This document shows, piece after piece, positions 2,942 through 4,519 of a DNA stretch of 64,000 bases (positions within the stretch are counted from its first letter, which is position 1; each line of letters starts with the position of its first letter). The notes below the pieces were generated by a model. The model did no database searches. It worked only from the letters and a program-made list of their open reading frames with translations, and was not told where the DNA came from. This DNA is from an uncultured Anaerolineales bacterium (GTDB lineage: Bacteria > Planctomycetota > Phycisphaerae > FEN-1346). The stretch is taken from positions 1,089 through 65,088 of the forward strand of contig CAYNLG010000009.1 of NCBI GenBank assembly GCA_964397995.1, in the 5' to 3' direction. The translations under genes and the position numbers were made by a program.

Positions 2942-4519
2942 ATGCGTGTCTTCAAGCCGACGTACAACGACCGGGGTGGGACGTCAAAGCGGACCTCGCG
3001 GTGGCACGTGGAGTTCCGTGACGCCTGGGGCAAGAAGCGGAAGGCCGCGGCCTTCAAGGACAAGGGCTAGAGCCACGAGTTCGGCAAGAAGGTGGAGAAG
3101 CTTGCCGAGTGTGTGGCCAACGGGGAACCGCCGGACCGGCCGCTTCGGCGGTGGCTGGAAGGGCTCCCGCCGCGGCTCCAGAAGCGCTTGGCCACGGTGG
3201 GCCTCCTGGAAGGGCGGCGGCTGGCGGCGTCGAAGCCGCTGGCGGAGCATCTGGAGGACTGGCGGCAGGCGCTGCTCGACAAGGGCGCGTGCGAACGGCA
3301 CGCGCAGCAGGTCTTCTCGCGGGCGGAGCGAACGTTCCGGGCCTGCAGGTTCACCAAGTGGTCCGACCTCTCGGCCAGCGCCGTCATGCGGTACCTCGGC
3401 CAGCGGCGCGAGGGCGCGAAGCCCATCTCGGCCCAGACGTTCAACTTCTACCTGCAGGCCGTCAAGCAGTTCGCCAAGTGGATGGTCCGCGATGGCCGGG
3501 CGACCGAGTCGCCCCTGGCGCACCTGCAGGGCCTCAACGTGCGGACCGACCGGCGACACGACCGGCGGGCCCTGACGGCGGACGAACTGCGGCGGCTCTT
3601 CGAGACGACCCCCGAGCAGGACGAGCGCGGCGGCATGAGCGGCCACGAGCGGGCCATGCTCTACCGGCTGGCGGTCGAAACGGGGTTGCGGCAGAACGAA
3701 CTCCGGAGTCTGACGCGGGCGTCGTTCGACCTGGAGGGCGACCCGCCGACGGTGACGGTCGAGGCGGCCTACAGCAAGCATCGGCGGGACGACACGTTGC
3801 CGCTGCGGCCCGAGGTGGCGGTGGTGCTGAGGGACTTCCTGAGGGAAAGGGCGCCCGCCACGCGGGCGTTCCACGTTCCGAACCGGGACGTCATGCTGCG
3901 GGCCTACAAGCACGACCTACGGGCGGCGGGCATCGCGTACAAGACCGACGCCGGCTACGCGGACTTCCACGCGTTGCGGCACACCTTCATCACGCTGCTC
4001 GCGCAGAGCGGCGTGCACCCGAAGACGGCCCAGTCGCTGGCGCGGCACTCGACCATCACCCTGACGATGGACCGGTACTCGCACAGCGTCGTCGGGGACC
4101 ACGCGAGCGCCCTGGACAGGCTGCCCGACTTCGACCGTCCGAAGGCCGGTGCGGCCCGCGCGACGGGGACGGACGACCGGCCTGTCTTGTCGCAAAACTT
4201 GTCGCGATCCGGCGGGCGCGGGCGGACGGGGGCGGACAGCGGCGGACCGGCAAACGGCGAATATGGGGAGAAATCGAGCAAAACACCCATTAAACAGATA
4301 TCGACTGCCAGCCTTGAAAACCGGCGTGCCCTTCGGGGTACCGGGGGTTCGAATCCCCCCCTCTCCGCCAGGATTCGGCAGAAGAGCGGCACCCCGCCGG
4401 TCCGGCAGCGCGTCGGCGGCTTGCTTAGGGGGGCCCTTCGGGTATACTTCCGGCACGCACGCCTGCTGCGCCCCGGAGGACGCCGTGTTCGACCGCCTGT
4501 TCCGAGGTCCCGTCCTTGA
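2942..4519 (+). pseudogene. int: tyrosine recombinase/phage integrase interrupted by an in-frame TAG (3067-3069); the ORF stays open through the att-like region
   Basis: N-terminal arm-binding-like segment MRVFKPTYNDRGGTSKRTSRWHVEFRDAWGKKRKAAAFKDKG is followed by TAG, and the same frame continues into ORF 3092..4519. The catalytic region HALRHTFITLLAQSGVHPKTAQSLARHSTITLTMDRYSH carries the R..H..R..Y signature. The 120-aa C-terminal extension past the catalytic Tyr is atypical. The core domain probably ends near 4150. Confidence 0.7.
4334..4360 (+). other. tRNA/tmRNA-like 3-prime terminal fragment (T-arm GGGGG-TTCGAAT-CCCCC, acceptor CTCTCCG, CCA); probable att core of the integrative element
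   Basis: Canonical T-arm and acceptor 3-prime strand ending CCA, but no complementary 5-prime acceptor strand within 120 nt upstream, so it is not a complete tRNA. It closely resembles tmRNA 3-prime ends (GGGGGTTCAAATCCCCCC..CCA). It sits directly next to the integrase. Confidence 0.45.

Follow-up and report, generated by a model that had tools for sequence, protein, structure and literature searches.

In Myxococcus phage Mx8, the phage attachment site (attP) lies within the integrase gene (int), a tRNA gene serves as the target, and integration creates a new 3' end of int (PMC6070905; PMC4383910). The protein is called IntP in the phage, and IntX or IntR in the prophage. According to the literature summarised in PMC6070905, the C-terminal part of the Mx8 integrase (Int) is needed for recombination, or modulates it. 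In fuselloviruses of the SSV type, the integrase open reading frame (ORF) also lies across attP, and int is partitioned upon integration into a tRNA gene (PMC4383910). The authors of Islander, who use a displaced tRNA fragment as the mark of an island end, name Mx8 and the SSV viruses as cases of integrases that extend across attP (PMC4383910). In the mycobacteriophages BPs, Brujita and their relatives, an attP with a tRNA-derived core overlap is found inside a protein gene, and integration removes the C-terminus of the protein and alters its behaviour (PMC9262239). In the literature, we found no description of an attP within int for Planctomycetota. Here, we describe an int gene in a stretch of 64,000 nucleotides (the window) from an uncultured bacterium of this phylum (contig CAYNLG010000009.1, positions 1,089 to 65,088).

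We conclude with good confidence that this gene is the integrated-state, host-fused copy of an integrase gene that contains attP, and that it has additionally been inactivated by a genuine mutation of codon 43 from Gln to amber. An earlier reading of the window, made from the letters alone (the sequence-only reading), had left the choice between a pseudogene and an integrase that reads through its attachment site. Both parts of this proposal stand, independently of each other.

The integrase gene of the window

The int frame is interrupted by TAG, and is then stop-free from 3071 until the TGA at 4517-4519. Its parts are listed below, with the G+C content of third codon positions (GC3) where it was used.

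2942-2944, + strand: int start codon ATG, which opens a run of 42 sense codons to 3067
2942-3067, + strand: int codons 1-42, N-terminal beta-strand, arm-binding-like domain, encoding MRVFKPTYNDRGGTSKRTSRWHVEFRDAWGKKRKAAAFKDKG
3068-3070, + strand: in-frame amber codon TAG, codon 43, at the position of a Gln codon (CAG), from the sequence and the alignment of 119 homologues
3071-4078, + strand: core-binding and catalytic domains of int, up to the catalytic Tyr, from the Pfam match, conserved residues and a GC3 of 0.94
4079-4198, + strand: conserved tail after the Tyr (LDRLPDF...RATGTDD...), from conservation and a GC3 of 0.90
4199-4312, + strand: variable low-complexity tail, presumed P arm of the att site, GC3 0.68
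4313-4370, + strand: 3' half of tRNA-Ser(UGA), the att core, which the int frame reads as LENRRALRGTGGSNPPLSA
4371-4519, + strand: host flank in the int frame, with 48 full sense codons from 4373 in addition to the boundary codon 4370-4372
4517-4519, + strand: stop codon TGA of the int frame

The in-frame amber codon with an open frame beyond it had already been noticed in the sequence-only reading, which placed it at 3067-3069, one base to the left of its true position. The catalytic Tyr, put there at about 4090 with about 140 codons to follow, belongs to the motif MDRYSH and is encoded at 4076-4078, and 146 codons separate it from the end of the frame. The att-like fragment that the frame had been seen to cross is the tRNA-Ser(UGA) half.

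The merged int product matches the Pfam family Phage_integrase (PF00589) with residues 210-382 (E 3.3e-19, 69.7 bits, cut-off 27.1). The active-site residues R250, K279, H343, R346, H369 and Y379 are all present in the window protein, and across 120 sequences each of them is either invariant or conserved to at least 90%. In the tail, P395 is invariant, and A390, L394, D396, T408, G409 and T410 are at least 90% conserved. The same degree of conservation applies to R2, Y8, G13, W21, E24 and D27 at the N-terminus of the homologue alignment. With TAG at codon 43, the window int lacks an uninterrupted full-length frame.

The last 49 codons (4371-4516) had escaped attention as host flank and do not belong to the integrase. 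They do not resemble the tails of homologues, and they extend into the beginning of the next host gene, an ORF with weak beta-helix matches. In the window copy, the C-terminus of the integrase thus appears to be swapped for the host-encoded residues that these 49 codons after the tRNA CCA specify.

The amber codon

A search for homologues of the window integrase returned 3573 proteins, typically of 480-600 aa, and 79 related loci were collected from Planctomycetota genomes, among which the genome of the window is not included. In 119 aligned homologues, the column of the TAG codon contains Ala (82 sequences), Gln (26) or other residues (11). The four closest homologues (54-62% identity) all have Gln in this column and read ...D(R/K)GQS..., which agrees with the earlier expectation of Glu, Gln or Lys, and a single C-to-T change of CAG accounts for TAG. 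The N-terminal segment is unbroken in 119 of the 119 homologues. For each locus, in-frame stops were counted within its best tblastn alignment; one of the 79 loci has a premature stop (L048, integrase at 10001-11386, TGA at codon 181), which is not at the TAG codon. In view of the N-terminus in every homologue and the single locus with a premature stop, a stop at codon 43 is not programmed in the family. We also noted that the N-terminal domain has been lost in L042 and L056, and that decayed copies of the family are a minority, about 3 of 79.

An error of base calling or assembly would leave int intact and functional. In favour of an error, the rest of the gene is undamaged, its catalytic residues are conserved, its GC3 is 0.88-0.94, and TAG is one base away from the expected CAG. 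The check for a base-call error was approximated with two Logan contigs from different runs, L155 (SRR7048219, 5405 bp) and L156 (SRR7048224, 1885 bp). Both are 100% identical to the window, over 4342 bp and 1885 bp, respectively, and both carry the TAG, which makes an error extremely unlikely. No other copies of the element were returned by two pattern scans of metagenomes that spanned the TAG and allowed any base (N) at its first position.

Alternatively, a suppressor tRNA, recoding or programmed read-through could allow the amber codon to be decoded, so that full-length integrase is still made. Nothing speaks directly for decoding, apart from a position between two domains that would tolerate an inserted residue according to the structure model described below. 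However, of 30 coding-like ORFs in the window, 11 terminate with TAG, and one of these is the helix-turn-helix (HTH) gene directly upstream of int, which stops 3 nt before the int ATG. The sole tRNA gene that ARAGORN found in the window is tRNA-Val(GAC) (22097-22173, + strand), and a tRNA with a CUA anticodon is absent from the window, the only part of the genome to which this search applies. Within the window, there is no sign that TAG is reassigned or suppressed, codon 43 is not a stop in any relative, and we give decoding hardly any credence. The Gln of the closest relatives, the TAG in two further assemblies, the absence of the stop as a family feature and the use of TAG as an ordinary terminator together show that this is a genuine nonsense mutation.

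The position of the stop was judged on the AlphaFold model of P0002, a full-length homologue that is 56% identical to the window protein (mean predicted local distance difference test score, pLDDT, 84). In this model, residues 2-36 form five strands (pLDDT about 97), consistent with the arm-binding-like N-terminus of the sequence-only reading, and the Gln that matches the window stop begins a helix that spans residues 41-60. Because TAG comes after the beta domain of the model, the arm-binding-like domain would be severed from the rest of the protein. The conserved stretch after the Tyr is helical, whereas the equivalent of the variable tail has a pLDDT below 50 and is predicted to be disordered. 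Full-length structures of lambda Int are among the best fold matches of the model, with about 400 aligned columns.

Translation could also restart at GTG 3092 or a nearby start, and yield a truncated integrase of 475 aa with some recombination activity. This GTG is in frame, 21 nt after the TAG, the 475-aa form is present in the protein collection (P0001), and the core-binding and catalytic domains are intact. However, the N-terminal domain is kept in all 119 homologues and contains the six highly conserved residues listed above, and the truncation also removes the start of helix 41-60 of the P0002 model. In lambda Int, arm-dependent recombination requires the N-terminal domain. Reinitiation to an active product is therefore unlikely, and the 475-aa ORF is a mechanical call. 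An exact look-up of P0001 returned no record, and its cluster came with neither name nor accession.

In the sequence of events that we propose, a C-to-T change would have converted Gln codon 43 (CAG) to TAG directly 3' of the N-terminal beta domain, independently of the architecture of the tail. Full-length integrase would no longer be made, and the element would most likely be immobilised. We infer that the TAG mutation abolishes recombination. The int gene of the window is an ordinary pseudogene, or at best codes for a truncated product.

The int frame in related loci

The sequence-only reading had called the extension after the Tyr unusually long. In comparison with the family, in which this tail has a median length of 121 aa (interquartile range 103-140), the 146 aa of the window are not exceptional. 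The first 45 or so tail residues are conserved (LPDL..RATGTDD..LAxCLA) and predicted to be helical, and the remainder is variable. A tRNA gene adjoins the 3' end of int in 65 of the 79 loci, in 53 cases convergent and in 12 cases co-directional with int. The int frame reaches or crosses this tRNA in 63 of the 65, and the arrangement, regarded earlier as unusual, is the common one.

An open frame could have arisen by chance in G+C-rich DNA and be without meaning. The G+C content of the window is 71%, and 35% of its positions, in any frame, are followed by at least 146 stop-free codons. Moreover, GC3 drops from 0.90 to 0.68 after 4198 and is 0.63-0.71 beyond this position, so that the tail of int beyond about 4198 is without a coding signature. 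Taken by itself, the open tail in this genome is of low significance and not statistically unusual, and it becomes significant only via comparison with relatives.

This comparison is clear. Between the Tyr and the tRNA, 50 loci with a G+C content of 43-69% contain 0 stops in the int frame, and 112 and 191 in the other two frames, with 158 expected per frame. When the conserved first 45 codons are left out, the counts are 0 for the int frame, and 65 and 109 for the others, with 92.8 expected (Poisson P ~5e-41). The loci in which the frame is open to the tRNA include genomes of 43-50% G+C, and, as described below, the frame leads on into a conserved module at attP junctions, both reconstructed and natural. 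Chance is thus a very unlikely explanation, and the counts point to an int frame that is clearly maintained across the family. Since an open tail is the rule for the whole family, it is not peculiar to the window gene, and the long extension is the normal form of the gene in the integrated state.

attP within int in the family

Sixteen loci contain a second copy of the int-adjacent tRNA half 4.6-11.1 kb upstream, and the direct repeats, of 37-78 bp, bound the elements. To reconstruct the excised circles, the right copy of the tRNA half was joined to the sequence beyond the left one. The int frame remains open for 51-92 further codons in 14 of the 16 circles, and there ends in a conserved motif, ..LAxxLAxxxxxDPDLAxVVxAWPxLPExxKAGIVAMVKA... 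In the integrated state, the frame stops beyond the repeat in all 14 of these loci. The C-terminal module of about 40 aa is predicted to consist of three helices (pLDDT 85-97). No match to it was found in Pfam, PHROGs, the PDB fold library or phage records.

A profile of the module identified 1261 database proteins, of which the best 120 are all 'hypothetical proteins' of 40-155 aa. At least 27 of these 120 begin with a peptide derived from antisense tRNA, such as GFEPT or GIRT. By their sequences, these short proteins are the orphaned last exons of integrated elements. The contiguous form of the gene is found, as predicted, in two unintegrated viral contigs of 43-49 kb, L087 and L111, where int is located in the middle of the contig as a single ORF (574 aa and 533 aa, respectively). 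The order within this ORF is catalytic domain, ATGT motif, tRNA-antisense peptide and module. The reconstructed circles and the contiguous viral ORFs place attP within int. The sequence-only reading had missed that such elements encode the native C-terminus, with the conserved module, at their opposite end.

In the excised circle, the ORF would lead from the catalytic domain through a conserved tail of about 45 aa, then a variable linker and then the tRNA-derived core to 50-90 codons that end in the three-helix module. Integration would cut off about the last 60 codons, so that this exon comes to lie at the opposite end of the element, and would fuse the int frame to host DNA, here for 49 residues up to the TGA at 4517-4519.

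The circle-form protein contains two copies of the motif LAxCLA, one that follows ATGTDD and precedes the att core, and one with which the module begins (as in VLASCLALLAEKDP); this may reflect an internal duplication that flanks attP. The 112-aa database protein P0137 joins the integrase N-terminus (MRVFKTSYTD...VEF) directly to a tRNA-antisense peptide and the module, and looks like a deletion derivative from which the whole recombinase body is missing. One integrase family is found in elements of 4.6-11 kb and in the viral contigs of 43-49 kb (L001-L079 as compared to L087 and L111). The copy in the window is accompanied by a helicase gene and by no recognised virion genes. Satellites or replicative islands are possible identities of the small elements.

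In three elements with int co-directional to the tRNA, the duplicated segment consists of the 5' half of the tRNA and sequence upstream of it.

L025: repeats at 1823-1881 and 11396-11454
L042: repeats at 4347-4422 and 11277-11352
L045: repeats at 5683-5727 and 10281-10325

The duplication of the 5' half implies that in these cases the element supplies the 5' half of the regenerated tRNA. This class is rare in the Islander collection, where 159 islands have a tRNA 5' fragment, compared with 3760 that have a 3' fragment (PMC4383910).

The tRNA-Ser half of the window

The tRNA-Ser half extends from the anticodon loop CTTGAAA to the CCA (4313-4370, + strand) and occurs once in the window. It matches the tRNA-Ser genes of related loci from about position 32 to the 3' end, and unrelated sequence takes the place of the 5' half. 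Neither ARAGORN nor Rfam at its gathering threshold calls a gene at 4313-4370. A tmRNA was considered as the identity of the fragment and rejected, because the match is confined to 18 nt of the T-arm. Rfam matches to Plastid-psbl-rps4 and sX4 are below threshold and were read as a reflection of the tRNA-like sequence.

Both Logan contigs end at position 4342 of the window, 30 nt into the tRNA-Ser half. If Logan assemblies are based on 31-mers, as we presume, this end would make 4313 the first base that is shared with another context, presumably an intact tRNA-Ser at the other end of the element. The contig ends would thus fit a second copy of the tRNA-Ser half in the samples. Taken together, the region would be the attR-side (right) end of a small integrative element in the tRNA-Ser(UGA) gene of a high-G+C bacterium. 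Its left end, with the intact tRNA-Ser and the module, presumably lies outside the window.

Several observations weigh against the view that the window gene is a host-fused member of this family with a genuine amber codon. The missing coding signature in the tail and the abundance of open frames in this genome have been mentioned. SRR7048219 and SRR7048224 are neighbouring accessions, which together with the window contig perhaps come from one study, and perhaps not from independent populations. Of the signature of an island in a tRNA gene, the displaced fragment and the integrase are seen, while the intact tRNA-Ser is found neither in the window nor in the extra 1063 nt that L155 covers to the left. 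The module is likewise absent from the window, where a sensitive six-frame search with hidden Markov models gave a best E of 0.38, and from the leftward 1063 nt of L155; the left end of the element is in neither sequence. With module and intact tRNA-Ser not found, the split-gene model for the window copy is inferred, not demonstrated, and a continuation of the ORF past the core into the native C-terminus is seen in relatives (14 of 16 circles, L087 and L111). The window int reads the 3' half of the tRNA in the sense direction, and no relative with this arrangement could be reconstructed; L024 and L023 share it, and neither has a left end within 10 kb. In L008 (7345-7590) and L033 (11476-11654), int, tRNA fragment and module are contiguous, but the module is in the +1 frame. 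These could be tandem or hybrid junctions, products of decay, or something else.

Comparison with known systems

The Mx8 integrase (533 aa) contains the antisense tRNA-derived peptide STGLEPV about 60 aa past the catalytic Tyr, followed by about 110 residues. The same layout is seen in L087 and L111 and in the Planctomycetota integrases that were reconstructed. We considered a homology to Mx8 Int beyond the generic recombinase fold and rejected it, as the hhalign probability was 0.3% for the whole protein as well as for the C-terminal region. Mx8 is not among the 25 best phage matches listed. As far as their sequences tell, Mx8 Int and the Planctomycetota family are analogous, and not demonstrably homologous. 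Unlike Mx8, the Planctomycetota family has a conserved three-helix end module of its own. It uses many tRNA species, which are read in either direction, and in some cases the tRNA 5' half is duplicated.

In the integration-dependent immunity of the mycobacteriophages, it is the repressor that is split, and integration removes an ssrA-like degradation tag. In Planctomycetota, in contrast, int is split, and a folded helical module of about 40 aa is removed. SSV-type integrases are archaeal and unrelated in sequence to the Planctomycetota family. In SSV1, integration separates a large part of int, rather than a short C-terminal exon.

With lambda Int, the family shares the predicted N-terminal beta, core-binding and catalytic domains, and the transcription of int towards att. 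Lambda int stops before the core, and regulation at its 3' end takes place at the level of the RNA (sib). In Planctomycetota, by contrast, the coding frame of int itself crosses the core.

Other features of the element

The element of the window is at least 5.4 kb long. It encodes a 342-aa HTH protein (partly to the left of the window), small ORFs, an AlpA-like protein, a helicase, a second HTH protein and int.

830-1082 (start approximate), + strand: AlpA/HTH_17 excisionase-like gene (Pfam HTH_17 4.2e-7, Phage_AlpA 5e-4)
1049-2680, + strand: DnaB-N/AAA_25 replication helicase-like gene (Pfam AAA_25 2e-38, DnaB 1.6e-22; PHROG DnaB-like helicase)
2677-2705, + strand: promoter-like site of sigma-70 type, TTGACA-17-TATAGT with an upstream TG (near consensus; consensus match only)
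2714-2938, + strand: Cro/CI-type HTH gene, 74 aa (Pfam HTH_3, E 4.7e-8; TAG stop at 2936-2938)

The helicase gene is syntenic in 7 related loci, and a homologue of the Cro/CI-type HTH gene is found directly upstream of int in 11. As the HTH stop is so close to the int ATG, the two genes may form a single operon and be translationally coupled. The promoter-like site, which precedes this gene pair, has 11 of 12 consensus matches, and one such site was found with 0.1 expected from shuffles. A small Cys-rich ORF of 72 aa (502-720, + strand; CxxCxxCCC...C...C), without a family match, lies between two HTH genes.

In the variable tail, 66-92 bp upstream of the att core, GGCGGAC occurs three times with an exact spacing of 10 bp (4221-4247), and a copy with one mismatch is located at 4211. 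This phased pattern is unique in the window and had 0 matches in shuffles. Phased hexamer repeats are present in the same region of 7 of 50 relatives, compared with 0 of 50 control segments inside int. The GGCGGAC repeats may be candidate arm-type integrase sites.

Implications

The locus itself is an ordinary decaying mobile element, a recently disabled passenger. What is annotated there as a 475-aa 'integrase' is what remains of an N-terminal piece of 42 codons and a host-fused body. The consequences for the family are wider. Its integrases are systematically mis-modelled, with database entries that carry host-encoded tails, while their true C-terminal exons appear separately as orphan 'hypothetical proteins', more than 1000 in number, which start inside tRNA fragments.

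By analogy with Mx8, the swap of the C-terminus may regulate recombination. It is possible, though we hold it somewhat doubtful, that the module is a built-in sensor of the integration state: full-length Int would integrate the element, and the host-fused Int without the module would be altered or reduced in activity, so that the insertion is stabilised. If true, such a switch would be common to thousands of Planctomycetota elements, from satellite-like islands of about 5 kb to phages of about 45 kb. It would need sequence of the tRNA gene to be translated in either orientation, and in some members a 5' half of the tRNA that is supplied by the element.

Up to now, the evidence for attP within int has rested mainly on Mx8 and the SSV viruses. 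The architecture of the family is a new and large instance of this known but rarely documented principle, and is moderately interesting beside an ordinary pseudogene. The family has more than 3500 members, a split-off domain that is conserved, and contiguous forms that occur naturally. This provides a broad comparative basis, and the family offers experimentally tractable candidates for the question of whether a swap of the integrase C-terminus controls the direction of recombination.

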